Sequence record: PZ445527.1
Origin: a phage
Length of the DNA: 64,000 nt
Direction: 5' to 3' (one strand)
The position numbers were made by a program, and so were the translations under genes. The notes beneath the pieces were generated by a model that did not search any database, was not told the origin of the DNA, and saw nothing but the letters and a program-made list of their open reading frames with translations. Of this stretch, positions 2,735-41,067 are shown in pieces; the first letter of the stretch is position 1; each line of letters opens with the position of its first letter.

Positions 2735-3166
2735 TTACCAATCGTTAACAACACCAGAGAACTCAGAAGCAAAAACTTTCTCAAATTTTTCTGCAATTTC
2801 AGGATGATCCTTACAGATCAACTCAATACATGCTTCTGGAGTCATTCCTTCGTCTTCAGGATCACCATAATACTTGTCCCAAAGATCGTCAGGGATGATG
2901 TGCTCTGCCAAATCTTGGAAAGAGATTAGCTGATAACGTTCTGCTTCCTCAGGGATAAGGATTTCACAAAGATCTTTATCTATATCACTACGGTAATCAG
3001 CAATTAGCAGGGCATTGCAAGCATGACACTCCCAAACCATCAAGCGTTCAGAAATAGAATTAGACTTATCCTGAATGTAGGACTGAAACAGGGTTCGAAA
3101 AGTAGCTTTAACTTGTTCAAACTTATCTGCTGCTGCAAAAACTAGAGCTTTATCAACTTTGTTCAT
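2735..3166 (-). CDS. hypothetical protein
   Basis: 143 aa ORF preceded by promoter at 3197..3225. Confidence 0.55.
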   Translation of the reverse strand: MNKVDKALVFAAADKFEQVKATFRTLFQSYIQDKSNSISERLMVWECHACNALLIADYRSDIDKDLCEILIPEEAERYQLISFQDLAEHIIPDDLWDKYYGDPEDEGMTPEACIELICKDHPEIAEKFEKVFASEFSGVVNDW

Positions 3167-3196
3167 TTTGTTTCCTTCTCATCAATTTATAAAGTA

Positions 3197-3225
3197 ATTA
3201 TACAGAAACTTAGGCATTTTAGCAA
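3197..3225 (-). promoter_or_regulatory. sigma70-type promoter
   Basis: TTGCTA, 17 nt spacer, TATAAT. Confidence 0.6.
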
Positions 3226-3333
3226 ATAAAACTTTTAATTAAAATGCCTAATCCTGTACTAATAGCAATACAAATGATTATAAGTATTGCTACTGCTTGT
3301 ATGACTCGTTTAATGATAACCTCAGCTATATAC

Positions 3334-3855
3334 TTAGACATTTAACATCCAGCTAGTTTTATCATGGGAAGTATACTTACCACTCATGATGTCTTCCAGG
3401 CGTACTGGTGATTTTGCATACTCTACACAAACGTTAATATAACGAGGGTCTCCCATTAACTCAAAGTGAGTATGCCCATGTAAGTTCTTTTTACCCCTCA
3501 GCTCCTCTGGATGTACTGGAGCATGGGAAAGCCAAAAGTTTTTATACTTAACTAGGGATTGTACATTATCTACTACTCCTACTAAGTCTTTGAAAGATAA
3601 CCCTTCTCGTTCTAAGTCGTGGTTCCCCAAAACTAATATAGTTCTAACATTGCTAAAGAGTTTTTCGAACTTTTCCAAACCATTTCTAGATACAAATGCA
3701 TCTCCTAAAATATAAAATACTGTACGCTTATCTTTCATGGATGTAATAGTATCCATAATAAATTCATCATGCTCTTCCATAGTAGAGAAGATTGGTCTGA
3801 ATTTAGTAATATTTGCATGTCCTAAATGGAGATCACTCCAAAAGCAAACTTTCAT
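3334..3855 (-). CDS. calcineurin-like metallophosphoesterase
   Basis: 173 aa; metal-ligand motifs DLHLGH, GDAF, GNHD, GHTH typical of metallophosphoesterases. Confidence 0.7.
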   Translation of the reverse strand: MKVCFWSDLHLGHANITKFRPIFSTMEEHDEFIMDTITSMKDKRTVFYILGDAFVSRNGLEKFEKLFSNVRTILVLGNHDLEREGLSFKDLVGVVDNVQSLVKYKNFWLSHAPVHPEELRGKKNLHGHTHFELMGDPRYINVCVEYAKSPVRLEDIMSGKYTSHDKTSWMLNV

Positions 3856-4718
3856 TAAAGGATCCTCTGTACACCACAGCTATTATTTTTGTCAGTGGTA
3901 AATGCTGTGATTTTGCCAGTTTCATCATTAACCTGCGCAACCGTCAACTGCCCGTTGAAAACACCGCCAGTATCAAGATAAACACGGTTTTTATAAAGAA
4001 GTGGGTAAGGTACTCCAGTATGCCCGTGAAACACGAAATCTATCCCTTTAACTTCTGGCACTTCCACCATATATTCTTCTTTAAATCCTGCATAACGCTG
4101 GAAATAGGGGTGTTCCTCAACATTTTTAGACAAGTGGAAGCCTATTTCTTGGATTACATCTCGATCCCATAAATATGGTTCAACATGGTATCCAGGAGGG
4201 TCATGTGGGTCTTCCTTAGCTGCTTCTACTTGTGCAATAAGGTTATCCCATACTGGGGTTTCAACTTCGTTACCACATTCTTTGTACATAAAAGGTACAC
4301 CACCATGAACAACACCATATTTCTTGCCACGATGTTTAACAGTTAGGAATACTGGCATTTTTTCAGCCATGTCTTCGGCAATATTTTTAATGGTATCTGC
4401 ATCTAGTTCATTCATAGCCCACATACCACCGTTATACATCCAGTTAGCCCAATCTCCTACAATCATAAACTGGTCATGATTTCCACGAACGCTACAGAAA
4501 CGTGGATTATACAGGAATTTGGCTAAAACTTGTAGGTTCTGCGTGCCTCGATCAATTAAATCTCCCACGCATACAACGCAATCTTTCTTGCCGTTATAGC
4601 CAGCTAATTGTAGTGCATCTTCTAGCAAATCGTTGCATCCATGAATATCACCAACAAAGAATAAGTTAACATCATCAGGTACTACTAGTGTTTTATGTAC
4701 ATTAAATTCTTTTTTCAT
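3855..4718 (-). CDS. serine/threonine protein phosphatase (PPP family)
   Basis: Motifs GDIHG, GDLIDRG, GNHD as in lambda-type PPP phosphatases; ATG at 4718 sits 2 nt after upstream stop. Confidence 0.8.
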   Translation of the reverse strand: MKKEFNVHKTLVVPDDVNLFFVGDIHGCNDLLEDALQLAGYNGKKDCVVCVGDLIDRGTQNLQVLAKFLYNPRFCSVRGNHDQFMIVGDWANWMYNGGMWAMNELDADTIKNIAEDMAEKMPVFLTVKHRGKKYGVVHGGVPFMYKECGNEVETPVWDNLIAQVEAAKEDPHDPPGYHVEPYLWDRDVIQEIGFHLSKNVEEHPYFQRYAGFKEEYMVEVPEVKGIDFVFHGHTGVPYPLLYKNRVYLDTGGVFNGQLTVAQVNDETGKITAFTTDKNNSCGVQRIL

Positions 4719-4720
4719 AA

Positions 4721-4966
4721 TTATTCCCAAATAACATTTAAAATAGTTGTACCATAGTTATTCGATAGTTTGAGAGTATAACCCTCTTTATTGAGGGCTT
4801 TTATAGCCTCATAACTAATTTCGTCACGATTAAGCTGTACAAAGGAACCTCCAATCTCGACAGAAGATACTATCCTCCGCTTAACCCATCTATACGTTTT
4901 CTTTCGGCTCTTAAGGAGTGCAGCTCTATTAACCCTAGCTAAATGTTTTGCTTGCTCTGCTAACAT
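4721..4966 (-). CDS. hypothetical basic protein
   Basis: 81 aa ORF downstream of promoter 4994..5022. Confidence 0.5.
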   Translation of the reverse strand: MLAEQAKHLARVNRAALLKSRKKTYRWVKRRIVSSVEIGGSFVQLNRDEISYEAIKALNKEGYTLKLSNNYGTTILNVIWE

Positions 4967-29694: not shown

Positions 29695-30074
29695 TCATCT
29701 AACCATCCTATGTCTATACTAAGTAATGCTTTTATTCCTGTAATACCTGTACCATAGGTATTATATCGAATAGCACTTCTGCTCTTTACTTCAAGTATAT
29801 TTTCATACTCTGTATTTTCTAGAATTTCTGTAGATATACCTAAATATCCTGATTGATCTTCCTCGTCCCAACCCATATCTTCTAGAAGATTTAGACGTAA
29901 TTCTACCTTCTCATCTCCATTGCCTACAGAGTAGTAGTCTTCTAAAGTCCTGAATTTAGAAGTGATAGAGTCTAGTATTAATAATATCTGTTCCTTAGTA
30001 ATAGTTTCTTTATCACCCTGTAAGTAATTGGAGTAATTCAGAAGGGCTTGTTCTAATTCAATTTCTTTACTCAT
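29691..30074 (-). CDS. hypothetical acidic protein
   Basis: 127 aa ORF. Confidence 0.5.
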   Translation of the reverse strand: MSKEIELEQALLNYSNYLQGDKETITKEQILLILDSITSKFRTLEDYYSVGNGDEKVELRLNLLEDMGWDEEDQSGYLGISTEILENTEYENILEVKSRSAIRYNTYGTGITGIKALLSIDIGWLDE

Positions 30075-30174
30075 TTTATTATCCTTTTGTACTTATTGAG
30101 TATATTATATTTAAAATTATACCTAATAAGCAGGTACAATTTCAAATATAATAGCCCCGAAAGGGCTATTTGAG

Positions 30175-31014
30175 TTAAGAAGACATCTTAGCTTTAAGAG
30201 CTGGGTGAGGATCATACCCCTCCAAATGGAATGACCAAGCTGCCGTATTATTTTCTAGTAAGTCGTAAAGATCTACAAATTCTGGCATTACTAGAGTCGG
30301 TAAAGGACGAGGTTTACGTTTTACCTGTTCTTCTACCTGTTCCATGTGGTCATTATAGATATGAGTATCGCCGCCACTAAAGATAAGGTAGCGAGGTTTT
30401 AATCCTGTCAGTTTTGCTAATATATGCGTTAATAAAGCATAACTAGCAATGTTGAAAGGTAAACCGAGGAAACAATCCACAGAACGTTGTGTCCATTTAA
30501 GATCTAGGTATCCATCGTTACTTACATAGCACTGGAAGCCGTAGTGACAGGGTGGTAATGCCATTTTATCAAGTTCAGCTACGTTCCATGCAGATACTAG
30601 GTGTCTGCGACCATGTGGGTTATTTTTGAGTCCCTCAATAAGTTCTATAATCTGATCTCGTCCACCAAAGTTGCGCCATTGTTTACCATATACTGGCCCT
30701 AGATTACCTTTGTCATAACCCATACTTATGGCTTGGTCTTCGTAGTTTGGAGTCCATATAGTCCATTGCCCCTCATCACACCCAAAAGTGAATACACGTA
30801 GATCATGAAGATTTGTGGAACCAGACAAGAACCATAAAAGTTCTCCTACTACTGATTTCCAGGCCAGGCGTTTAGTAGTTACAGCCGGGAACCCTTCACG
30901 TAGATCGAACTTAGCATAGGAATCAAAAATTGAAACTGTGCCTGTTCCTGTACGGTCATTACGGGGTTCACCTAGTAAAATTACATCTGTCAAAATTTTT
31001 AAGTATTGTTGCAT
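30175..31014 (-). CDS. thyA: thymidylate synthase
   Basis: 279 aa; conserved ThyA active-site region PPCHYGFQCYV. Confidence 0.9.
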   Translation of the reverse strand: MQQYLKILTDVILLGEPRNDRTGTGTVSIFDSYAKFDLREGFPAVTTKRLAWKSVVGELLWFLSGSTNLHDLRVFTFGCDEGQWTIWTPNYEDQAISMGYDKGNLGPVYGKQWRNFGGRDQIIELIEGLKNNPHGRRHLVSAWNVAELDKMALPPCHYGFQCYVSNDGYLDLKWTQRSVDCFLGLPFNIASYALLTHILAKLTGLKPRYLIFSGGDTHIYNDHMEQVEEQVKRKPRPLPTLVMPEFVDLYDLLENNTAAWSFHLEGYDPHPALKAKMSS

Positions 31015-31547
31015 TAATAAGTAACCAATTCCTGTACAAATCGCAGGCTGTTATCACTGTTTGCGCCAACTGCATAGACTAATCGAGTGGATTCATAGTT
31101 ATAATCCAGTATCATACTATCTAGGTGTGTATCTGCCTCTAGCTTCTGTTCGCTAAAGATTGTAGATACAAAAGCACTTTCAATATGCCCATGTTGGTAC
31201 ATTTCTAGAAGAAGACTAGCTCCACCTAGAACTACTGTTTGCTGATCTTTTAGAAAGGTAGGTAATGTATCACCTATCATTGATATGGGAGTGTAAATAT
31301 CGTGTGTAATATCGTCTGGCAGTGGACGATCAGCACGAATAAATAGGTCAGAAGCTCCAATCATACGTTCCCTAACGGTATATGGAAGAGCTAAATAAGT
31401 ACCCGCACCAATGATGATATTATCGGGATTCAACACGTCCAGTTGGGAATAGAAAGCATTCAGCTCTTCCTTGAAGGAGCCCCAAGGAAGCTTACCCCGG
31501 AGGCCGAACTCCCCATTCGGCCCAACTGCATACATTGCTGTAATCAT
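31014..31547 (-). CDS. dihydrofolate reductase
   Basis: 177 aa; N-terminal MITAMYAVGPNGEFG and position between thyA and nrdB. Confidence 0.8.
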   Translation of the reverse strand: MITAMYAVGPNGEFGLRGKLPWGSFKEELNAFYSQLDVLNPDNIIIGAGTYLALPYTVRERMIGASDLFIRADRPLPDDITHDIYTPISMIGDTLPTFLKDQQTVVLGGASLLLEMYQHGHIESAFVSTIFSEQKLEADTHLDSMILDYNYESTRLVYAVGANSDNSLRFVQELVTY

Positions 31548-32689
31548 AGGAAATCTCCAAATTCATTACCCAAATCTTTCAGGGTATCCATAGACGTTTC
31601 TGTGACTTGACCTACACGGTAGGCTGCACCAATCTGGATTTCTTGTGGAGCAGGCTGTAGAGAGGTAGTATCCAACCAGTTCATGATCCACGGAATAGGG
31701 TTTTTGGTGATTACTGGTAAGTGACTAGGCCATTCTACACCAATGTGCATAAATGCATTACGCCCCACAAAGTACAGATATTCTTCTAGAAGTTCTGCAT
31801 TCAAACCAATCAGACTACGACCTTTGAAGATGAAATGACCCCATTCAATTTCAGTTTTCAGAGTTTTCAGGAGCTGTGCTGGTGCTTTAGCCACTGCTTC
31901 ATCTACCAGATCTTTGTCAAACTGCTGGAACATAATCTGGATGATTGTTTTAGACATCTGCGTGTGAAGGGCCTCATCCTTAGCAATCAACTGCAGATTT
32001 TTAGCAATACCTTGCAGAATATCGTTCTCTGCTAACGCAAAGGTACATGCAAAGGATGCGTAGAACTGCATTGCTTCCAGACCGTAGATTGCAAAATAAG
32101 CATCTAACAGTTTAGCCTGAGTTTCACGCTTAACTTCAGGGAACTCAGTTTCTGGGTATGTATTGTCACCACGATGATCACGTACTGCGATGAAATACTG
32201 ACCTAACTGGTACAGTTCATCAAATAGTTCAACAGAATCTGCGATACGTGCAAATGCTTCTTGGTTTTTAGTTACAGAATCAATAAATTCTGCCGGATCA
32301 GTCAACACATTACGAATAATATTGCTATAGGCACGACTATGCAGGTCTTCAAAGTAGCTCCACTGTTTTAGCATTCCTTCCAGTTCAGGGCGGCTTACAA
32401 GCGGCATAATAGCTGCTTCAGGTGCGCGACTAATGAAAGAATCTGTTTGGGTCTGCCATGCTAAGTTCAGGAGTGTAATTTCCTGAATTTCACGAGGGAG
32501 GTTAGGCCATTGTTTCTTATCAGCCTCTAAACTGATTTCTGTCTCAGTCCAAAATTGAGAGCGTTGCAGAAGTGCCAGACGCTCTAATTCTGGATGTGCT
32601 ACGCGTACATAATCTGCGATACCTAGAGAATCGCCCAGGAAAAGATCAGCGTTAGTATGATCCCAATTCAGGTTTAGTAAAGTAGTCAT
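31544..32689 (-). CDS. nrdB: ribonucleotide reductase small subunit
   Basis: 381 aa; iron-ligand and tyrosyl-radical region typical of class Ia R2. Confidence 0.9.
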   Translation of the reverse strand: MTTLLNLNWDHTNADLFLGDSLGIADYVRVAHPELERLALLQRSQFWTETEISLEADKKQWPNLPREIQEITLLNLAWQTQTDSFISRAPEAAIMPLVSRPELEGMLKQWSYFEDLHSRAYSNIIRNVLTDPAEFIDSVTKNQEAFARIADSVELFDELYQLGQYFIAVRDHRGDNTYPETEFPEVKRETQAKLLDAYFAIYGLEAMQFYASFACTFALAENDILQGIAKNLQLIAKDEALHTQMSKTIIQIMFQQFDKDLVDEAVAKAPAQLLKTLKTEIEWGHFIFKGRSLIGLNAELLEEYLYFVGRNAFMHIGVEWPSHLPVITKNPIPWIMNWLDTTSLQPAPQEIQIGAAYRVGQVTETSMDTLKDLGNEFGDFL

Positions 32690-32720
32690 TGATTTTCCTC
32701 TTTCTCACTATTTCAGGAAT

Positions 32721-32749
32721 ATTATAGCAAATCAGATAGCGATTAGCAA
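32721..32749 (-). promoter_or_regulatory. sigma70-type promoter upstream of nrdB
   Basis: TTGCTA, 17 nt spacer, TATAAT. Confidence 0.6.
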
Positions 32750-32755
32750 GTAAAA

Positions 32756-33262
32756 TTATAAACTATCAAGCTCCAATAGTTTAGCATCACGCCATTCTAT
32801 AGCATCCTCTAATTCTTTAAATGTTTTTGTATATTTTACGCCTTTACGAGCTATCTGGACTTGATATGATCCACTAGCTTTTTGATGAATATTTTTAATA
32901 CCTAGCTTATTGTCTTTATGCGCCCCGACATTCTTTCCGTTACTGAATCTATCAGAAGCTACTAGGTTAATAGCTCTATTATCATGTCGTATTCTATTAT
33001 CGTGGTCTACTTCAGGTGGCAGATACCCATGAATTTTAGCAAAGATTACCCTATGGGCTAAGTAGGGGTATCCTTTAATATTTAATACTATATATCCTGT
33101 AGATTTATCTAAGGAGCCTGCTGGTTTTCCGGCATATTTGGTATTAAATGTTTTATTATCTCTAGGTCTATGAGTCAATATTCCAGTATATGGATCATAA
33201 TCAAATAATTTAGCTACCTCTAGATGATCTTCTAATGTTTTTGACATAATTATAATTTCCAA
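32756..33262 (-). CDS. HNH homing endonuclease
   Basis: 168 aa; AHRVIFAKIHGYLPPEVDHDNRIRHDNRAINL; sits between nrdA and nrdB. Confidence 0.75.
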   Translation of the reverse strand: MEIIIMSKTLEDHLEVAKLFDYDPYTGILTHRPRDNKTFNTKYAGKPAGSLDKSTGYIVLNIKGYPYLAHRVIFAKIHGYLPPEVDHDNRIRHDNRAINLVASDRFSNGKNVGAHKDNKLGIKNIHQKASGSYQVQIARKGVKYTKTFKELEDAIEWRDAKLLELDSL

Positions 33263-33311
33263 CCAATTAGTATAAAAATAAGAGGGTTATAATTAACCCT
33301 CTTTACTAGTT

Positions 33312-36300
33312 TTATAAGGTGCAGCCACCTGAAGAACATCCTGTAGTTTCTCCAGCTCCTCCACCATTCGCAGTGTTAAAGTTAGCATAATACCAGGTTT
33401 TTATACCATACTTAACCGCAGTCATAAAGTCACGAACTACTACTGGGCCAGGGATGATTTCATTCTCGAATTTAGAGTAATCATAATACATCTGGAAACT
33501 TGATGACTGACTCAAGAATTTTTGGTAAACGGCGTTCCACTTGATCCACTCAATACGATCTACATCATAGGCCAGTTTATAGCTCATGAGAGTATCCCAA
33601 TCAGTTGCACCTGGGGCAATTGCAATTACTTTATTCACTGCACTACCCTTGATAGATACAATCTTACGAGGTGGTTCAATAGAGTTAGTAACGCCTAACA
33701 GAACAGAGGAACTTTCTCCCGGCATCTGCGCAGTCAGAACAGAGTTACGCATACCGTATTTCAGAATGTCTGCACGCAGAGATTCCCAATCCATTTCTAG
33801 ACCTACGGATACCAGCTCATCAACAGTTTTCTTATACGTGTCGATTACCAGAATTCCTTTGGATGGTTTAGTACGATTAAACCATTCACATGCACCTTGT
33901 TCTTTAGCCAGACGTACAGAGGCTTTATGTAGGAAGTAAGACAGTTTTTCAGCTTCACGATGAATCCAGTTACGTGCTTCAACGCCTTCATAAGCCAAAC
34001 CTTCCGCCGCCATTGCACCTGCTGCGTTCATCAGACCAATACCAACATTACGACGTTTCTTAGCCGTATATTCCATAGTTGGGAACGGATAATCCTGAAT
34101 TTCAATGATGGTATCAACGAATTTCAGGAGGATGTAGCAAGTTTTCTCCCACTCAGCCAGAGATTCCATGCGTCCTAGTACAACACCACCTAAGTTACAC
34201 AGAGATACTTCACCAATATCCTCTGGCTTCATTTGATCAAGCTGCTCTTTTGTCTTATACAGCTCTGTGATATGATGGAACGGGCGTGTAGGCTGAGTAA
34301 TTTCTACACAGTTACCCGCTAAAATGCCATTAAATACACCTAAGTTTAATTTAGGTTCTGTAAAGCAATAAGTATCACTAATACGACCAGTAAACTCAAC
34401 GTTAGTTACAGTTACAAAACGGGTTGCGTCTCTATTGGGGCGTGTTAGGTTTAAGAGTTTCTCTTTATCCAAAGAGAGTCCTAAATCTTTAAGTTTCCAG
34501 AAGCCACTACTCCCCACAATAAGCCTACTAGTCTCCTTGCAGTGGTATAGTTTACTAGTACCAGTACCATCTGGTAACTCGTGGTCACCTTCTTTGCGTC
34601 CTAAAATAATCTTGCTAGTAACCCCCAATTCTAGTAACAAATCCTTCACTTTACTTAGAAAATCAGGCTCTGCCGAAGCAACCACAATACTAGGAGTTGT
34701 GCCATTTTTCTGTATGCAGCCATCTGCATCTAAATATCCCTCTAACCATTTGATACGGCTATCAATAGTATACTCTGGGCCAGGTACAAAATACTTCGGC
34801 ATTAAATCAGACTTAACAATATAGCTCAGTCTACCTGTGCTGTCCAGTAATCCACTTCCCTGAATTTCTGCGTCAATTTTATCCACTAATGGTAGTTTGC
34901 CACCTTTTTCATAGAAGTACAGCTTAGGTTCTCCATGTCTTCCATAAGTTCCATCTCCAGTGAAGAAACCGTTAGTATAAGGAGATTTTAGTACCATATT
35001 TCCATGATCTACAATAGGATTACTAAATTTAGGCATTTTCATACCTACTTGCAAGTCTACTGCTCGTACCTCTTCTAGCCCCTGTTTGAAAGAGGTACGA
35101 CGATCCTCTCTGACATATTTGGGCTGGTGGTAGAACTTATGATAAAGAGTAGATTCAATAGTAGATCCATCAGAGAATGTGATTTTTATCAACTCCTGAG
35201 CTTCCCCAGTTTTAGTAGGGATAACTGTTGACCATTCTTGTCCGTTCCAAATCTCTACTTCTTTACCAACTAAATCAATAATCTCTATGTTACCATTTTT
35301 GGTTAAAATTTTTGTTTCTGGAGCTACACAAAGGTTTGTCATACGGATTGGATCAAGGAAGTTACCGTGACGATTAGATTCCCCGATGTGGTGCGCATAC
35401 ATACGTCCTGTTTCCATTCGGATACGTAGCCAAGTATCTAGGATTTCTTTTGCAGAGACTTTAGGAGCTGCTGGAACTGTTTTTCCTTCGTGGTCGATCT
35501 TTGTAAGAGATGCCACACGTTTCTCCGCTGCCACGTAGATTTCTTCAAATTTAGCCTCGTCATCACTATAAAACGCTTCATGAACTTCTGGAGCATAGAA
35601 GTATGACATTAGCGTAATATCTTCATTTTTCAGATAACGTTTTAACAAAAGATTGTTGAAGCTCAGAGAATAATCCATCTTATCAATTTTATTCTCGTCT
35701 GTAGCACGTTGTTGCTTAACCTGCATCAACTGAATGATTTCAGGGTCAAAGTATGGATAAGACACTGTAGCAGAACCACCACGAGTTTGCTGAGTATTGG
35801 CCTTTACTGAGCGATCAATGTGTCGATAATATGGCAGTTTTCCGGAATGCGGGAATGCCCCATTTCGCACCGGATCAGCAATTGATCTGCTTTCAAGATG
35901 ATACCCGATTCCCGCTCTGGCTGCAACCATTTTGAAGACGATGTGCTCGGCGGTGTCGATTGAATCCAACGTGTCAGTGGAATCCACGAGGCAGCAACTA
36001 GCAAATCCACGGTCACTAGAGCGCAGACCAACCAGTGGCGGCGTAGGAACGTTGATTTTGTGGAGCGACATTGCGTTGTAGAGGTCGATTGCATCTAGAA
36101 TTGTCCAGTTAGGTTGAGATAACATCGCCATTGCCATACCCATGTAGGCAAACTGCGGAGTTTCATAAATTTCACCAGTGGCTATGTTGCGGCGGGAATA
36201 CTTATCAAAGAACTGCTTCAGTCCACCACTAGTAAAAAGACGGTCACGATCATGGTCGATAACCTGATTCAGAGCTTCAAATTGCTCATCGGTAATCCAT

Positions 36301-36659
36301 GCACTCATGTCTTCCCATGCACCTACGCTAACCATGTGGTCATGGAAGAAGCGCAGAGAAGGTGGTTCGAAGGAATCATAAAGGCGTTTACGCATTTGCG
36401 CAAGACGTAATTCCTTTGCTGGCACATCGTATGCTGGGTTATCTTTGATAAGGCTTTCAGCAGCCTTAATTAATGCGTCCATCAGAGTGTCGGAATCTAC
36501 AACCCCTTTAGGCAGAGTTTTTTGAGCAGCCATAGTAATGGCTGACCAACTTACATCAACTGTTTTGCAACCATACTCTGCCCAACCATTGAGTTTTTCA
36601 GGAGCAAAGTCTTCTACAGTACCGTCACGTTTAATTACTTTTTCAATGCGATGGCTCAT
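33312..36659 (-). CDS. nrdA: ribonucleotide reductase large subunit with in-frame intein
   Basis: ORF 33312..36764; start placed at MSHRIEKVIKRDG Met by comparison with NrdA N-termini; class Ia R1 motifs throughout; about 340 extra residues inserted at the NLC active-site motif. Confidence 0.9.
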   Translation of the reverse strand: MSHRIEKVIKRDGTVEDFAPEKLNGWAEYGCKTVDVSWSAITMAAQKTLPKGVVDSDTLMDALIKAAESLIKDNPAYDVPAKELRLAQMRKRLYDSFEPPSLRFFHDHMVSVGAWEDMSAWITDEQFEALNQVIDHDRDRLFTSGGLKQFFDKYSRRNIATGEIYETPQFAYMGMAMAMLSQPNWTILDAIDLYNAMSLHKINVPTPPLVGLRSSDRGFASCCLVDSTDTLDSIDTAEHIVFKMVAARAGIGYHLESRSIADPVRNGAFPHSGKLPYYRHIDRSVKANTQQTRGGSATVSYPYFDPEIIQLMQVKQQRATDENKIDKMDYSLSFNNLLLKRYLKNEDITLMSYFYAPEVHEAFYSDDEAKFEEIYVAAEKRVASLTKIDHEGKTVPAAPKVSAKEILDTWLRIRMETGRMYAHHIGESNRHGNFLDPIRMTNLCVAPETKILTKNGNIEIIDLVGKEVEIWNGQEWSTVIPTKTGEAQELIKITFSDGSTIESTLYHKFYHQPKYVREDRRTSFKQGLEEVRAVDLQVGMKMPKFSNPIVDHGNMVLKSPYTNGFFTGDGTYGRHGEPKLYFYEKGGKLPLVDKIDAEIQGSGLLDSTGRLSYIVKSDLMPKYFVPGPEYTIDSRIKWLEGYLDADGCIQKNGTTPSIVVASAEPDFLSKVKDLLLELGVTSKIILGRKEGDHELPDGTGTSKLYHCKETSRLIVGSSGFWKLKDLGLSLDKEKLLNLTRPNRDATRFVTVTNVEFTGRISDTYCFTEPKLNLGVFNGILAGNCVEITQPTRPFHHITELYKTKEQLDQMKPEDIGEVSLCNLGGVVLGRMESLAEWEKTCYILLKFVDTIIEIQDYPFPTMEYTAKKRRNVGIGLMNAAGAMAAEGLAYEGVEARNWIHREAEKLSYFLHKASVRLAKEQGACEWFNRTKPSKGILVIDTYKKTVDELVSVGLEMDWESLRADILKYGMRNSVLTAQMPGESSSVLLGVTNSIEPPRKIVSIKGSAVNKVIAIAPGATDWDTLMSYKLAYDVDRIEWIKWNAVYQKFLSQSSSFQMYYDYSKFENEIIPGPVVVRDFMTAVKYGIKTWYYANFNTANGGGAGETTGCSSGGCTL
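34311..35330 (-). mobile_element. intein with LAGLIDADG homing endonuclease inside nrdA
   Basis: Insert begins with Cys (CVAPET), ends GILAGN followed by +1 Cys of extein NL-CVEITQP; contains GFFTGDGTYG and LEGYLDADGC motifs. Confidence 0.8.
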
Positions 36660-36803
36660 TTGGTTTTCCTTTTTATAGTTATCAGGATTTAAGGAATATT
36701 CTACATTATTATTGGTCATTAGGCAAATAAAATTTTCTGATAGAAAAGGCCCGAGTATTTTCATACCCAGGCCCTCTGTGTTGTCAGTCTAGTTTTTGGC
36801 CAC

Positions 36804-37001
36804 TTAAGTTCTCAGCAGAATATCTATCGAGGTACTTAGTTCACTATAATTGAAGGGCCGATTTGGATTTGAGGTTACAATTTTCCACGCTAGGGTAGTC
36901 TTAGGACTTTCTTCCCCTTCCTTACGTGTAATCATATTAGCAGCGCTCAGTGAAGTACGATGTATTTTAGTTTTTCGGTGTAGATGTACAACGTCTCCCA
37001 T
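36804..37001 (-). CDS. small hypothetical protein
   Basis: ATG 2 nt after phoH stop, preceded by GGGGAAGG RBS; low confidence. Confidence 0.3.
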   Translation of the reverse strand: MGDVVHLHRKTKIHRTSLSAANMITRKEGEESPKTTLAWKIVTSNPNRPFNYSELSTSIDILLRT

Positions 37002-37002
37002 A

Positions 37003-37755
37003 TTACACCTTCCCCATGTCTTTAAAAATATCGTAGAATGCTTTAGACTCAGCAGAACGAACGTTATCAATTAATTCGATCATTGAGAATGGAGCATTTT
37101 CATATTTCTCATAAACTTCCATAAGAAGTGCTAGACCTGAGTCACCTTTAATGTCTTTCTGAGCTATATCCCCGCAGATAATCAAACGGCAGTCTTGTCC
37201 TACACGAGTTAGGAGACAAACCATTGCCTCAACGGAAATATTCTGAGCTTCATCGACAATTACATAGGAGTTGTTGAAAGTTCTGCCACGAGCATGTTCT
37301 ATAGCCAAAAATTTAATTTTCTGACGTTCGACATATCCCTTATAGGCATGATCACCGATGGCCCATTTCATACCATCAGCTATTGGCTCCAACCAAGGCT
37401 CTAGCTTTTCGGCTAGATCACCAGGAAGCATACCAAGAGACTTACCTAGAGGTTCATTAGGACGTACGAGAATCACTTGCTCAATATCTGAGTGAATGTC
37501 TACGAGTTCCTGAGCTGCAAGAACGGACGGAATAAAGGTTTTACCAGTACCTGGCTCACCGATACCCACAGTCACTGTGTTGTTCTTGATCATATTGATA
37601 TATGATTTTTGCTCGCGGTTTTTACCTACTAGGGATTTAGCAACTGGGTTAGCGTAATCATTAGAAAAATCAGCCTGAATTACGTTATTCTCATATTTGT
37701 TGCCACGCTTTCTTGAACCATTGCGGTTCTCTCTTTTTTGACGTGCTTTTCCCAT
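37003..37755 (-). CDS. phoH: PhoH-like ATPase
   Basis: Walker A GEPGTGKT and VIVDEAQN Walker B; start at MGKARQ Met after AGGAGTG RBS. Confidence 0.85.
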   Translation of the reverse strand: MGKARQKRENRNGSRKRGNKYENNVIQADFSNDYANPVAKSLVGKNREQKSYINMIKNNTVTVGIGEPGTGKTFIPSVLAAQELVDIHSDIEQVILVRPNEPLGKSLGMLPGDLAEKLEPWLEPIADGMKWAIGDHAYKGYVERQKIKFLAIEHARGRTFNNSYVIVDEAQNISVEAMVCLLTRVGQDCRLIICGDIAQKDIKGDSGLALLMEVYEKYENAPFSMIELIDNVRSAESKAFYDIFKDMGKV

Positions 37756-37830
37756 AAATAACACTCCTATAGTGTACTTCGCTTCTAACAGAGGATCAAC
37801 AAAAGATCTTGTTTATCAACTTACAAATAT

Positions 37831-37859
37831 ATTATACCAGTATATACAGTAAAAAGCAA
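37831..37859 (-). promoter_or_regulatory. sigma70-type promoter upstream of phoH
   Basis: TTGCTT, 17 nt spacer, TATAAT. Confidence 0.6.
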
Positions 37860-38030
37860 CTACAATTTTAAATAAGCCTATGATATTGCATTTAAATAAA
37901 AAATTTGCTTGCTTATAGAGGTAGAAATATGATACTAGATAATCATTTATTTATATGTAAAAATACTATGCTGTATAGCATCAATAAAAATTGATAAAAA
38001 TCAAAAGTCAAATAGTATTAGAAAAATGTA
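37860..38030. promoter_or_regulatory. AT-rich divergent intergenic region with palindromes at the strand switch
   Basis: No ORF; AT-rich; contains palindrome ATGCTGTATAGCAT; lies between outward-facing promoters. Confidence 0.35.
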
Positions 38031-38031
38031 G

Positions 38032-38060
38032 TTGACGTATGGGGTGGAATTATGTATAAT
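38032..38060 (+). promoter_or_regulatory. sigma70 promoter
   Basis: TTGACG, 17 nt spacer, TATAAT, then AAGGAG RBS and ATG at 38082. Confidence 0.7.
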
Positions 38061-38081
38061 ATGTGAATTAAGGAGAATTTA

Positions 38082-38747
38082 ATGGTAAGAAAGAAAATAA
38101 CTACAGAAGATGTGAACTTAGCACTTGCTCCCAGAGGAATAATTATGCTAAGCACGTATATATCAGCTAAATCCAATGCTATATTTAAGTGCTCTAATGG
38201 GCATAGTTGGGAGGCTAGAGTAGATAATGTAAAAGGTGGGAGAGGTTGCCCTTATTGTGCTAGTCGTACTTTAGATCTTAAAGAGGTAAATGAATCCTTA
38301 GCTGCTCGTGGAATAAAGATGGAAGGTAAATACATCAATTCTAAGAGTAAAATTATGTTCAGCTGTGAGAATGATCATAGGTGGGAGTCTACCCTTGATA
38401 GTGTTAGAAATCATAATTCTGGTTGTCCTATATGTTTATTAGAGAAGGATAATTATCCTACTAACGTATATATTTTAGTAAGTAGTATGGGAACCAAAAT
38501 AGGGATGTCTAGCAGAACTAAAGATAGACTCAGAGATATTAAAACTTCTTCTAACATACATGATTTAAAAATATTTAAGGAATATAGCTTTTCAGATAGA
38601 TCAAAAGCTGTGCGTATTGAAAGAGAAGCCCATTTACAGTTTAAGGAATATAATTGTCAGTACAAAGATTTTGATGGTGCTACAGAATTTTTTAGTATTG
38701 AGCCAGAAGTAGTAGCAAGGTTTATTGAGGAAATAATTAATGAATAA
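38082..38747 (+). CDS. zinc-ribbon plus T5orf172/GIY-YIG-like nuclease-domain protein (putative homing endonuclease)
   Basis: 221 aa; two CxxGHxW...CPxC zinc-ribbon repeats and C-terminal region VYILVSS...RLRDIKTS...REAHLQFKEY resembling the T5orf172 domain. Confidence 0.55.
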   Translation: MVRKKITTEDVNLALAPRGIIMLSTYISAKSNAIFKCSNGHSWEARVDNVKGGRGCPYCASRTLDLKEVNESLAARGIKMEGKYINSKSKIMFSCENDHRWESTLDSVRNHNSGCPICLLEKDNYPTNVYILVSSMGTKIGMSSRTKDRLRDIKTSSNIHDLKIFKEYSFSDRSKAVRIEREAHLQFKEYNCQYKDFDGATEFFSIEPEVVARFIEEIINE

Positions 38748-40587
38748 AGATGAATTGATTAGAAACTGCAAAGAAATTATTGAGGGTTCTGCTGATGAAG
38801 AGCTTCTCTTTAATAATGCGAATAAACCCTCTGAGCGTTTCCCTACACAAAGGGATATGCTTGCAGGGGAATTGAGTAAATATCTGATTCTAGAAGAAAT
38901 GCCAATTCAGATTCGAAATGCTCATATGATTGGAGATATTCATTTCCATGATGCTGACTATGCTGCATTAGGCATGACTAACTGTTGCCTAGTAGCCCTG
39001 GAAGATATGTTGAAAAATGGTATGAAAGTTGGTAATGCTGAAATTAGTACACCAAATTCTATTACTACTGCGGCGGCTATTACTGCTCAGATTATCACTC
39101 AGGTTAGCTCCCATCAGTATGGTGGTACTTCTGTAGATCGCCTTGATGAAGTATTAGCCCCTTATGTTCGTAAGTCCTATGATAAAAATCATGCGTTTGC
39201 AAAACGTTGGACTAAGGATGAAGCTAAAGCATCTGTAATGGCTACGGAGATGACTGAAAAAGAAGTCTATGACGCTTGCCAGGGTTTAGAATATGAAATC
39301 AATACCATGTTCAACTCTAACGGTCAGAGTCCATTTATTACCTTTGGTTTTGGTCTAGGAACTTCTTGGGAAGCACGTCTAGTACAGAAAGCAATACTGA
39401 AAGTACGCATGGATGGTTTAGGTATCAATAAACGTACAGCTATCTTCCCGAAACTGGTATTTGTACTTCGTGATGGCGTAAATATGAAACCAGGGGATGT
39501 TAATTATGACATCAAGAAGTTAGCTATGAAATGTACTGCTGAACGTATGTATCCAGATTATATCAGCTATGATAAGGTTGTGGAAGTTACTGGAGACTAT
39601 AAAGTTTCTATGGGCTGCCGTTCATTCCTAGCTGCTGCAGAAGATGGTGAAACTGCCGGTCGTAATAACTTAGGTGTTGTTTCTGTAAACTTGCCTAGAA
39701 TTGCTATCGAAGCTGAAGGAAATATTGACCTATTCTTTGATTTGCTTGAGCTACGTGTAGATACAGCATTAAAAGCGTTGGAGTGGAGAGTTGATCGCTT
39801 AAAATACATTCAAGCTAAAGCTGCACCCATCCTCTATATGTCAGGAGCCTTTGGATTACGCTTAGGGCCTGATGAATATGTATTCGATCATTTCTATAAC
39901 CGTGCTTCTGTATCTCTAGGGTATATTGGTTGCCATGAAATGCTACAGTTCATGTTTGGCAAAGATGTAGACACAATGTCCGAGACCTGCATCAAGTTTG
40001 TTCAGCGTGTATTGCAGTACATGCGGGATAGAGTCGATCAGAAGAAGGAAGAAACTAAGTTAGGTTATAGCCTGTATGCTACACCATCAGAGTCCCTATG
40101 TGATCGCTTTTGTCGTCTAGACCGTGAATATTTCCCGGAGCATGAAGATATTCTGTCCAAAGGATACTACACTAACTCTCACCACCTTGATGTGGAACGT
40201 AAAGTTGCCCCTAACGTGAAATTTGATTATGAATCTAACTTTACTCCGATTGCTTCTGGTGGGTGTATCTCTTATGTAGAACTACCAGATATGAAACGAT
40301 TCCCGGATGCACTGGAATGGGTTATTAATTATGCTGCTAGTAAGGTTCATTACTTCGGTATTAATACTCCAGTGGATTCCTGTGGTAAATGTGGATTCTT
40401 AGGTGAAACAGTAGCATCCGAAGATGGATTCAAGTGCCCTATCTGTGGTAATCATGACCCTGAAACTCTTGAAGTAACTCGTCGAGTTTGTGGGTATCTT
40501 GGAAATCCAGGTGCTCGTCCGTTTAACCCAGGAAAACAACATGAGGTTATGGGCAGGGTGAAACATCAGGATATTCGAGCTAAATAA
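38740..40587 (+). CDS. nrdD: anaerobic ribonucleoside-triphosphate reductase (class III)
   Basis: 615 aa; C-terminal glycyl-radical motif RVCGYLG; size similar to phage NrdD. Confidence 0.85.
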   Translation: MNKDELIRNCKEIIEGSADEELLFNNANKPSERFPTQRDMLAGELSKYLILEEMPIQIRNAHMIGDIHFHDADYAALGMTNCCLVALEDMLKNGMKVGNAEISTPNSITTAAAITAQIITQVSSHQYGGTSVDRLDEVLAPYVRKSYDKNHAFAKRWTKDEAKASVMATEMTEKEVYDACQGLEYEINTMFNSNGQSPFITFGFGLGTSWEARLVQKAILKVRMDGLGINKRTAIFPKLVFVLRDGVNMKPGDVNYDIKKLAMKCTAERMYPDYISYDKVVEVTGDYKVSMGCRSFLAAAEDGETAGRNNLGVVSVNLPRIAIEAEGNIDLFFDLLELRVDTALKALEWRVDRLKYIQAKAAPILYMSGAFGLRLGPDEYVFDHFYNRASVSLGYIGCHEMLQFMFGKDVDTMSETCIKFVQRVLQYMRDRVDQKKEETKLGYSLYATPSESLCDRFCRLDREYFPEHEDILSKGYYTNSHHLDVERKVAPNVKFDYESNFTPIASGGCISYVELPDMKRFPDALEWVINYAASKVHYFGINTPVDSCGKCGFLGETVASEDGFKCPICGNHDPETLEVTRRVCGYLGNPGARPFNPGKQHEVMGRVKHQDIRAK

Positions 40588-40594
40588 GCTAATC

Positions 40595-40630
40595 AGCCAG
40601 GTTGCTAGTCGACCTGGCTTTTATTTTATT
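40595..40630 (+). terminator. rho-independent terminator after nrdD
   Basis: Hairpin AGCCAGGT...ACCTGGCT followed by TTTTATTTTATTT. Confidence 0.7.
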
Positions 40631-40658
40631 TGCTTTCAGCTAAAAATATATGTATAAT
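40630..40658 (+). promoter_or_regulatory. sigma70 promoter
   Basis: TTGCTT, 17 nt spacer, TATAAT, leader ATAAATTTGAGAGGAG. Confidence 0.7.
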
Positions 40659-40686
40659 AGATTTATAAATTTGAGAGGAGAAGACT

Positions 40687-41067
40687 ATGAAAGTAAAACC
40701 CTATATAGTTGAGTCTACGTGCGGGAGTTTCCATCTAGGAGTGGATGATATTGCAGAAGCTATCTTTGCTGCTACAGGTGATTACTCCCATATAGGGGGT
40801 GCTGCATACCCCACCGTTATTGGTGATTGGGCGGAAACAAATCTAGATGTATCACCATATAGCTCACATTGCTTGTTTGATGAAGACAGAGATGAGGTAA
40901 AATGTAATCTTGAATTTGTATACAATAGAGTACTAAAAGTCTATCAACACAGTGTTGAGGGATATGAAGATATTACTGGAAGTATTAAACAATATCTTAA
41001 AGATGTATACTCTAATTTTTCTGATGAAGACCTGGAAACAGTTGCAGTGGAGTTTAATAATGACTAA
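40687..41067 (+). CDS. hypothetical protein
   Basis: 126 aa ORF with RBS GAGAGGAG. Confidence 0.5.
   Translation: MKVKPYIVESTCGSFHLGVDDIAEAIFAATGDYSHIGGAAYPTVIGDWAETNLDVSPYSSHCLFDEDRDEVKCNLEFVYNRVLKVYQHSVEGYEDITGSIKQYLKDVYSNFSDEDLETVAVEFNND

Follow-up and report, generated by a model that had tools for sequence, protein, structure and literature searches.

A probable bifunctional intein between Leu and the catalytic Cys of NrdA in a T5-like phage

In a stretch of 64,000 nucleotides from a T5-like phage (Tequintavirus; sequence record PZ445527.1), hereafter the window, nrdA, the gene for the large subunit of ribonucleotide reductase (RNR), is much longer than normal. What is the additional sequence, does it leave the gene functional, and is it mobile? 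A preliminary description of this DNA counted about 340 aa in excess and read them as an intein whose LAGLIDADG homing endonuclease splits the NrdA active-site motif. Our analysis bears this reading out: two profile matches (TIGR01445 and LAGLIDADG_3), the predicted fold, intein-free alleles of the same gene and an annotated copy in the phage SelmaRatti all agree. We consider it very likely that the block is a bifunctional class 1 intein with a double-motif LAGLIDADG endonuclease, placed inside the N-L-C-x-E motif, after its Leu and before its catalytic Cys.

The inserted block and its host gene

The host protein is a class Ia NrdA (TIGR02506, 569.7 bits against a cut-off of 341). Once the block is removed, the deduced product can be aligned over its whole length with E. 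coli NrdA (R1; residues 7-759, E 1e-142), with equivalents of the catalytic residues C225, N437, C439, E441 and C462 and of the C-terminal Cys pair; this alignment shows N-L-C-V-E, SLCNL further downstream and CSSGGC at the C-terminus. The first ATG of the open reading frame, at 36764, lies within a terminator-like hairpin (36777-36744; -22.3 kcal/mol by RNA folding, with a U-run after it), which is strong on folding though missing from the terminator scan list. The ATG at 36659 has an AAGGA Shine-Dalgarno sequence and agrees with the N-terminus of E. coli NrdA. We therefore prefer it as the start; the leading 35 codons of the 1150-codon frame are then probably untranslated, and the precursor measures 1115 aa and the spliced NrdA 775 aa. 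A free-standing HNH gene sits between nrdA and nrdB in the window and is extra relative to SelmaRatti.

The inserted block consists of exactly 340 codons (1020 nt), in frame, at residues 479-818 of the frame. It falls to the base where the preliminary description had placed it; location and identity were given correctly there, and the strand, which is minus, was left unstated. The junctions read GNFLDPIRMTNL/CVAPETKILT...GVFNGILAGN/CVEITQPTRPFH (slashes mark the splice junctions), that is, a Cys directly after N-L and an Asn followed by a Cys, as had been claimed. In the intein-free nrdA genes of BF23, T5_ev219, phC17 and chee24 precisely this 1020-nt block is missing, at the protein and at the DNA level, and the flanks are otherwise collinear. 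Across the insertion point these alleles run ...ACAAACCTT/TGTGTTGAAATT..., and relatives such as BF23 and T5_ev219 show RMTNL/CVEITQP uninterrupted, which is the NL-CVEITQP junction that had been predicted. Removal of the block restores N-L-C-V-E, which aligns on N437-L-C439-L-E441 of E. coli NrdA. An in-frame block, precisely absent from orthologues and restoring a host motif on removal, is the behaviour of a class 1 intein. The position directly N-terminal of the thiyl-radical site is described as the most frequent RNR integration point for contiguous inteins (Dassa et al. 2009, PMC2677866).

Table 1. Features of the nrdA locus in the window
Feature	Position	Strand	Description
nrdA ORF	33312..36764	minus	1150 codons, inserted block included
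N-extein of NrdA	35331..36659	minus	443 aa from probable ATG 36659; ATP-cone/all-alpha region and first barrel part
Intein	34311..35330	minus	340 aa, Cys1 ... Gly339-Asn340; HINT splicing domain split around LAGLIDADG endonuclease domain
N-terminal splicing region	35001..35330	minus	Intein residues about 1-110; block A CVAPETKILT with Cys1; block B T61-L-Y-H64 (TxxH)
LAGLIDADG homing endonuclease domain	34431..35000	minus	Intein residues about 111-300; two motifs
LAGLIDADG motif 1			GFFTGDG, intein residues 121-127; catalytic Asp126
LAGLIDADG motif 2			LEGYLDADG, intein residues 196-204; catalytic Asp203
C-terminal splicing region	34311..34430	minus	Intein residues about 301-340; block F DTYCFTEPKLNLGVF; block G NGILAGN, terminal Asn340
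+1 extein Cys codon (TGT)	34308..34310	minus	Splice nucleophile; counterpart, by alignment with E. coli R1 structures, of the thiyl-radical residue C439 in E. coli NrdA
C-extein of NrdA	33312..34310	minus	332 aa and stop; begins CVEITQP, ends with C-terminal CxxxxC redox tail
Terminator-like hairpin after nrdA C-extein	33303..33280

Splicing and endonuclease domains

The N-terminal splicing region is recognised by TIGR01445 (intein N-terminal splicing region; 35.2 bits against a cut-off of 24.5) over intein residues 1-67. Block A supplies Cys1 as the nucleophile, within CVAPETK, and the T61-L-Y-H64 of block B is kept in homologues as T.(Y/G/Q/N)H. In an AlphaFold (AF2) model of the intein (pLDDT 87.4, pTM 0.86) this region is built entirely of beta strands, at a pLDDT of about 95, and the C-terminal splicing region contributes strands 307-322, 330-333 and 336-339.

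At the C-terminal end the splicing motif is non-canonical, with G-N instead of H-N. Block G reads ...GILAGN/C and ends in relatives with N or Q, followed by C or S; both DTYCFTE and FNGIL(A/T)G(N/Q) are kept across the whole intein family in the homologue alignment. A penultimate His (G:6) is common in class 1 inteins, though not obligatory; here its place is taken by Gly339, as it is by Gly in almost the whole family, and the usual block F His is missing as well. Blocks A, B, F and G, which the preliminary description proposed to confirm along with two LAGLIDADG helices, could all be located, both helices included. The window intein gave no match to the C-terminal intein models of Pfam and NCBIfam/TIGR or to Pfam Intein_splicing; PF14890 is present in some of its metagenomic relatives. 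Gly339 does not exclude intein membership, because functional inteins with residues other than His at G:6 are documented (PMC4031507).

Between the two splicing regions lie both of the LAGLIDADG motifs that had been pointed out earlier, and Pfam LAGLIDADG_3 matches intein residues 194-280 (E 8e-14). Helices 117-126 and 189-203 of the model are each closed by a catalytic acidic residue and followed by beta sheets, and the DSSP pattern fits an alpha-beta-beta-alpha-beta-beta-alpha arrangement repeated twice. Asp126 and Asp203 are both kept in relatives at 42-54% identity.

A sequence search of the PDB with the intein yielded no useful match (the best, at E 0.66, was to an unrelated sperm protein), and folds had to be compared instead. 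The top Foldseek matches were the TliVMA, PhoVMA, PI-SceI, PI-PfuI and PI-TkoII inteins (E 1e-15 to 1e-6, TM about 0.55-0.62), so that the best PDB matches of the model (pLDDT 87) are all inteins, as expected of a HINT fold; the free LAGLIDADG enzymes I-DmoI and I-Tsp061I came next (E about 1e-5). The window intein shares the two-domain architecture of HINT plus double LAGLIDADG with TliVMA/PhoVMA (7qsu, 7qss, 7qst), PI-SceI (1vde), PI-PfuI from a Pyrococcus RNR (1dq3) and PI-TkoII (2cw7), although its sequence identity to the solved intein homing endonucleases is only 11-17%. It is also smaller (340 aa against 360-540 aa) and so probably does without the additional DNA-recognition region found in PI-SceI.

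Distribution, divergence and predicted activity

The intein is sporadic among T5-like phages: 5 of 529 nrdA records carry it (about 1%) and 524 do not. Besides the window, SelmaRatti and the Salmonella phages SP3, Kenya-K36 and Kenya-K42 have it. In SelmaRatti (GenBank MZ501103.1, bas34_0059) it is annotated as a mat_peptide 'intein' with boundaries identical to those in the window (C...AGN/C). This copy, at the same insertion point of the same gene, is 341 aa long; an indel of one codon and 8 amino-acid substitutions set it apart from the window intein, to which it is 97.7% identical in nt and 97.4% in aa. The nrdA exteins of the two phages are more divergent (95.7% nt identity). The three Salmonella phages have the same intein allele, with no intein annotation. 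RNR genes often contain inteins; the present element is already known and ordinary, since the same intein is annotated in SelmaRatti and occupies the commonest known RNR intein site. SelmaRatti belongs to the BASEL collection (Maffei et al. 2021, PMC8594841), and a literature search for work devoted to the NrdA intein of the T5 group turned up no more than one sentence in the BASEL methods. Megablast gave no match to the intein in 5,426 complete E. coli genomes; it is therefore not a host or prophage element.

Synonymous divergence was compared among four intein copies (window, SelmaRatti, SP3 and Kenya-K36). Between these copies dS is 0.05-0.066, or 0.035-0.06 in the N-terminal and endonuclease parts, and in the 50 codons of extein on each side it is 0.19-0.22; the fall is sharp and lies exactly at the intein boundaries. 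The exteins of intein-plus alleles are mutually no closer than they are to those of intein-minus alleles. Because dS in the intein is 3-5 times below that of the adjacent extein, these sequences indicate horizontal spread of the intein. Values of dN/dS are 0.07-0.27 for the intein and 0.02-0.08 for the extein, and the summed pairwise differences in the endonuclease domain (43 synonymous against 21 non-synonymous) place this domain, by sequence comparison, under purifying selection. As both intein and extein are under such selection, the same comparison suggests, indirectly, that splicing works.

In a sample of four intein-plus and four intein-minus alleles, three linked sites (+57, +66 and +69) and two isolated ones (-205 and +405) partition the two allele classes. 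Within these few sequences no long co-conversion tracts were found around the insertion point, the three linked sites being the extent of the evidence for co-conversion, and the flanks differ right up to the junction. Given the prevalence of about 1% among T5-like records and the non-zero dS between copies, the endonuclease could be weak, or the intein could spread via ordinary recombination.

From this anatomy we infer the following course of events. Translation would give a precursor of roughly 125 kDa whose N-L-C-V-E loop is still broken by the intein, after Leu and before the catalytic Cys. Cys1, helped by T61 and H64 of block B, would undergo an N-S acyl shift; the +1 Cys, later to become the site of the thiyl radical, would attack the thioester to form a branched intermediate; cyclisation of Asn340 would release the 38-kDa intein; and an S-N shift would restore the Leu-Cys peptide bond, leaving an 88-kDa NrdA, the same as in intein-free relatives. 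The calculated masses are 125.5 kDa for the precursor, 37.9 kDa for the free intein and 87.6 kDa for the ligated NrdA. RNR activity should require splicing, as only then is the active-site loop continuous. The excised intein may act as a monomeric double-motif LAGLIDADG endonuclease with Asp126 and Asp203 as its catalytic residues. In mixed infections it is predicted to cut an uninterrupted nrdA allele around ...AACCTT/TGTGTT... and to be copied in by recombinational repair, the putative target being the intein-free nrdA of T5 or BF23 around the insertion point ...CCGTATGACAAACCTT/TGTGTTGAAATTACTCAG.... A polymorphic allele in a tractable coliphage group, with intein-free T5/BF23 targets, makes a convenient natural system for studying intein homing and co-conversion in phage co-infections.

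The alternative that survives best, although we hold it unlikely, is an intein that splices but whose endonuclease is inactive or nearly so, and which is kept by vertical descent and ordinary phage recombination and not by active homing. Such an element would account for the low prevalence, the non-zero dS between copies and the lack of long co-conversion tracts, and homing-cycle theory predicts that the endonuclease decays once the element is fixed. It is harder to reconcile with a catalytic Asp pair and LAGLIDADG helices that are intact here and kept across the more distant relatives, with purifying selection in the endonuclease domain, or with a drop in dS exactly at the intein boundaries, which generic recombination would hardly produce. 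We give little credence to a second proposal, in which splicing would be conditional, for example redox-gated, and the element a post-translational switch on phage dNTP synthesis, not purely selfish. In such a scheme the family-conserved block F Cys322 (DTYCF) might pair with Cys1 or Cys+1 through a disulfide; the +1 nucleophile is also the residue on which the RNR thiyl radical later resides.

That the insertion is dead and non-splicing, with nrdA a pseudogene and RNR function coming from the host or from NrdD, seems very improbable. The two missing histidines and the absence of a C-terminal intein model match would suit it, but the frame of 1115 codons is intact, strong purifying selection acts on the exteins of intein-plus alleles, the splice-junction nucleophiles C1, N340 and C+1 are all present, a G-N or G-Q ending is kept in hundreds of phage nrdA genes, and splicing is known from inteins that have no His at G:6 (PMC4031507). 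Scarcely credible, despite the in-frame continuity and the frequency of introns in phage RNR genes (PMC3653736), is a lineage-specific NrdA domain or a group I intron with its ORF in frame by chance: the block is missing from 524 of the 529 close relatives and likewise from E. coli NrdA, has a HINT and LAGLIDADG fold with canonical Cys1, Asn and Cys+1 junctions, and matches no intron in Rfam at E below 0.1. The intron reading, group I or group II, was dropped on this last result: with E values up to 0.1 allowed, the Rfam scan covering 30000-41000 gave one chance snoRNA-like match and no group I or II intron.

Relatives in other phages

The bifunctional class 1 intein that we favour has relatives at the same NrdA site in six other phage groups, found by phage tblastn at 42-54% aa identity over the full length: Vibrio ICP1 (ORF203), Proteus PM135, Acinetobacter Bestia/AM24, Staphylococcus RP15, the Rheinheimera Barba phages and Vibrio PG07. 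The tblastn search was more informative for relatives than a search of a large protein database, in which the matches were all below 600 aa and mostly metagenomic fragments, T5-like full-length proteins not being among them. Homologues at this level of identity keep C1, TxxH, both catalytic Asp residues, DTYCFTE, a terminal N or Q and the +1 Cys. The phage NrdA inteins at the thiyl-radical site share with the window the xNL/C site, the CVAPET start and a T.YHKF block B, and also NGF(F/Y)(T/S)GDG, LD(A/S)DG and the DTYCFTE block F. A penultimate Gly is common to them, with Met in Bestia, and the C-terminal end is Gln (GQ/C) in most, G-N in the T5-like phages and PM135, and M-N in Bestia.

The RIR1 intein of Chilo iridescent virus (CIV), likened here by description, likewise interrupts the large RNR subunit of a virus and departs from the canonical C-terminal motif; the window intein differs in having the canonical terminal Asn. 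Inteins with an atypical block G do splice, through Gln cyclisation or without a penultimate His (PMC4031507), and for intein chemistry the window provides a mesophilic intein of the Cys1/Cys+1 kind whose penultimate residue is not His. Further relatives of the clade, at 34-38% identity, lie within NrdB, beside the tyrosyl-radical site, which suggests that the clade may have jumped between the two RNR subunit genes.

The finding is also of value for annotation, as some existing entries miss or misplace the intein. The GenBank record of ICP1 annotates an intein in the same gene region, with the feature shifted by two residues; the PM135 record leaves the gene unannotated; and several sister records describe a product of 1138-1422 aa as plain 'ribonucleotide reductase'.

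An intein within the active-site motif of NrdA

The window derives from a T5-like phage (Demerecviridae, Tequintavirus). The 24-kb stretch around the intein is 92-94% identical to Lindwurm, NBSal005, T5_ev219 and similar phages, and nrdA shares 96% identity with its counterpart in Escherichia phage SelmaRatti. The block CVAPETK...GILAGN occupies residues 479-818 of the nrdA ORF and spans exactly 340 codons, at precisely the position assigned to it in the preliminary description. Its context (slashes mark junctions) is ...IRMTNL/CVAPETKILT...GVFNGILAGN/CVEITQP..., which confirms the reported Cys directly after NL and the terminal Asn followed by Cys. The two LAGLIDADG-type motifs described are both present, GFFTGDG at intein residues 121-127 and LEGYLDADG at 196-204.

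The predicted extein junction, NL-CVEITQP, is the one found in the intein-free NrdA of phage BF23 (RMTNL-CVEITQP); in the protein alignment the flanks are identical and are separated by a clean 340-residue gap. The DNA of four intein-free alleles (BF23, T5_ev219, phC17 and chee24) reads ...ACAAACCTT/TGTGTTGAAATT..., with nothing between. After removal of the intein, the deduced protein can be aligned from end to end with E. coli NrdA structures (E 1e-142); its N-L-C-V-E falls on E. coli N437-L-C439-L-E441, and C439 is the thiyl-radical cysteine. Dassa et al. 2009 (PMC2677866) place this insertion point immediately N-terminal of the thiyl-radical site and call it the most frequent one for contiguous RNR inteins. 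The preliminary description is thus borne out in every point; it concerns a discrete structural feature, for which coincidence need not be considered.

Features around the intein, with minus-strand genes listed from high to low coordinates
Feature	Position	Strand
nrdD	from 38740	+
DUF4379/T5orf172 ORF (221 aa)	38082-38747	+
phoH	37003-37764	-
DUF7430 ORF	between phoH and nrdA	-
Hairpin	36744-36777	-
nrdA (long ORF, 1150 aa)	33312-36764	-
Intein block	34311-35330	-
nrdA mosaic 3' end	33312-33760	-
HNH_3 endonuclease gene	32756-33262	-
nrdB	31544-32689	-
frd	31014-31547	-
td	30175-31014	-

Sequence models and predicted structure support the original reading of the block as an intein with a LAGLIDADG homing endonuclease domain that splits the NrdA active-site motif. 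NCBIfam TIGR01445 (intein N-terminal splicing region) matches intein residues 1-67 with 35.2 bits against a curated cut-off of 24.5, Pfam LAGLIDADG_3 matches residues 194-280 (E 8e-14), and the NrdA family models match in two pieces, breaking off and restarting at the block. Splicing blocks A (Cys1), B (T61-x-x-H64), F (DTYCFTEPKLNLGVF) and G (NGILAGN, then Cys+1) could all be located, although F lacks a His and G has a penultimate Gly in place of His, as in almost the whole family. An AlphaFold2 model, for which 15 metagenomic homologues entered the input alignment, has high confidence (mean pLDDT 87.4, pTM 0.86). It comprises an all-beta splicing domain (residues ~1-105 and ~305-340) and a central domain in which two long helices (117-126 and 189-203) each end in a LAGLIDADG motif. 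The first Foldseek matches in the PDB were the intein homing endonucleases TliVMA, PhoVMA, PI-SceI, PI-PfuI (from a Pyrococcus RNR) and PI-TkoII (E 1e-15 to 1e-6), with free-standing LAGLIDADG enzymes such as I-DmoI and I-Tsp061I ranking lower; none of the Rfam intron models matched the intein region.

The first ATG of the nrdA ORF (36764) is buried in a GC-rich hairpin of 15 bp (-22.3 kcal/mol, z = -6.2); with UUUUCUAU after it, this hairpin probably terminates the phoH/DUF7430 unit upstream. Translation more probably begins at ATG 36659, where an AAGGA Shine-Dalgarno sequence precedes the codon and the encoded N-terminus agrees with that of E. coli NrdA; the precursor would then probably have 1115 aa (125.5 kDa), with a computed spliced NrdA of 775 aa (87.6 kDa) and an intein of 37.9 kDa. 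GenBank starts are inconsistent (BF23, 811 aa; SelmaRatti, 1138 aa; SP3 and chee24 from MSHRIEK).

Distribution and divergence of the intein

The window intein is a further copy, in a new T5-like genome, of an already annotated allele. In SelmaRatti, bas34_0059 (MZ501103.1) is labelled 'intein-containing ribonucleoside diphosphate reductase alpha subunit precursor'; its 'intein' mat_peptide boundaries (C...AGN) coincide with those in the window, and the two inteins share 97.7% nucleotide identity. Inteins in the BASEL collection, to which SelmaRatti belongs, were precisely identified at the annotation stage (PMC8594841). The same allele, not labelled as an intein, occurs in SP3 (two records), Kenya-K36 and Kenya-K42, giving 5 of 529 T5-like nrdA records with SelmaRatti included. 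A homologous intein was found by tblastn in 339 phage records, including Proteus PM135 (54% aa) and Acinetobacter, Staphylococcus, Aeromonas, Rheinheimera and Caulobacter phages; the homologue in Vibrio phage ICP1 is annotated as an intein in GenBank. Six aligned representative phages share the identical insertion point (xNL/C), which is the best-known RNR intein site, and keep the CVAPET start, T.YH(K/R)F, both LAGLIDADG motifs with their Asp, and DT(Y/F)C.

Homing of the intein is predicted: D126 and D203, its two catalytic Asp, are still in place and are conserved, and summed pairwise differences in the endonuclease domain are 43 synonymous versus 21 non-synonymous. Among four intein copies (window, SelmaRatti, SP3 and Kenya-K36), dS within the intein is 0.035 for the N-terminal splicing part and reaches 0.060 for the endonuclease part, compared with 0.19 upstream and 0.22 downstream in the 50 extein codons directly flanking the intein; over the whole gene the values are 0.05-0.066 for the intein versus 0.17-0.25 for the extein. 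In their exteins, alleles that share the intein do not resemble each other more closely than they resemble intein-free alleles. The intein copies therefore have a much more recent common ancestor than their host genes, a pattern predicted for an element that spreads horizontally by homing and leaves short co-conversion tracts. Five sites perfectly split intein-bearing from intein-free alleles, and three of them cluster downstream (+57, +66 and +69), which in a sample of four versus four alleles hints at a small co-conversion tract.

It is possible, but in our view unlikely, that the endonuclease is weak or dead and that the intein was spread by ordinary recombination. Low prevalence and the non-zero dS among intein copies would fit such a history, but neither the sharp dS step at the intein boundaries nor the purifying selection seen in the endonuclease domain agrees with it.

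Predicted splicing of the NrdA precursor

The residue set of the window intein fits the standard class-1 splicing pathway (PMC4031507), by which it would be expected to splice. An N-S acyl shift at Cys1, assisted by T61 and H64, would be followed by trans-thioesterification by Cys+1; cyclisation of Asn340 would then free the intein, and an S-N shift would remake the Leu-Cys bond. Because the +1 nucleophile is the catalytic RNR Cys and the N-L-C-x-E loop is broken, the precursor should be inactive and RNR activity dependent on splicing. Exteins of intein-bearing alleles are under strong purifying selection (dN/dS 0.02-0.08), which would indirectly support efficient splicing.

Most relatives end in Gln (GQ/C), not Asn; Asn closes the inteins of the T5-like phages and PM135, as G-N, and that of the Acinetobacter phage, as M-N. 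Functional inteins with a non-His penultimate residue and with a terminal Gln are documented, and in the Chilo iridescent virus RNR intein, which unlike that of the window natively ends in Gln, this Gln gives better splicing than Asn (PMC4031507).

Splicing might be conditional, for example redox-gated via Cys1, Cys+1 and the conserved Cys322, in which case the intein would serve as a switch for dNTP synthesis; we consider this improbable. Still harder to credit is a non-splicing intein in a pseudogenised nrdA, which the selection on the exteins and the intact nucleophiles contradict. We assign next to no probability to an intron acting at the RNA level or to a domain native to NrdA: the alignments, the fold and the lack of Rfam intron matches exclude both.

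Neighbouring mobile genes and related inteins

The free-standing HNH_3 gene (Pfam E 8e-9; probable start ATG 33247) lies between nrdA and nrdB, the position of mobE in T4. Its product is ~99% identical to a 'homing endonuclease' of the intein-free Salmonella phage phC17, and the gene is missing from BF23, T5_ev219 and chee24 as well as from the intein-bearing SelmaRatti, SP3 and Kenya-K36; the two selfish elements therefore assort independently. Over its last ~150 codons, nrdA is strongly mosaic in the T5-like group (mean dS 0.37; 85 summed pairwise non-synonymous differences), as in WNAVYQKFLSQSSSFQ versus WVATMQKFFSQSISTN, the window grouping with SelmaRatti and SP3 with BF23. This mosaic could be a recombination or co-conversion tract tied to the adjacent HNH insertion site. 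The ORF between phoH and nrdD, which overlaps the nrdD start by 8 nt, combines a pair of treble-clef zinc-finger repeats (DUF4379) with a GIY-YIG-like domain (T5orf172/MUG113); it is probably a further gene of the homing-endonuclease-like kind, and a 'putative homing endonuclease' occupies the corresponding position in SelmaRatti.

In NrdB, full-length metagenomic relatives of the intein (P0005, P0006, P0007, P0016 and P0044; 34-38% identity, E as low as 4e-55) interrupt the chain between the His that binds iron and the S-E-T-Y motif, which contains the tyrosyl-radical Tyr (...H/C...GQ/SETY). Two others lie elsewhere, P0013 at (I/L)APT in an RNR alpha chain and P0023 inside a non-RNR protein. 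These locations suggest that the clade has moved from one host site to another, also between the RNR subunits.

The SP3 NrdA (1422 aa; MG387042) carries a second in-frame insert of 304 aa (3979-4890 of locus L002), CYSADTEVLTK...HTTVCGN/S, at ANTQQ/(T/S)RGGS. It has intein-like ends and a +1 Ser changed from Thr, matched nothing in Pfam, and probably represents another intein that is unrelated to the first and lacks annotation; the site is empty in the window (equivalent nt 35786, ORF aa 327). In ICP1 ORF203 (HQ641347, locus L007), the GenBank 'intein' (3007-3990) is two residues off the boundaries implied by the family alignment (3001-3984), which give Cys1...Gln/Cys where the annotation has an Ala start and a C-Q end. 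In PM135 (MG030347, locus L004 1118-4492), a 1125-codon intein-containing nrdA ORF has no CDS annotation, and the RNR large-subunit label stands only on a 207-nt upstream CDS; its intein is the closest relative outside Tequintavirus and likewise ends in G-N/C.
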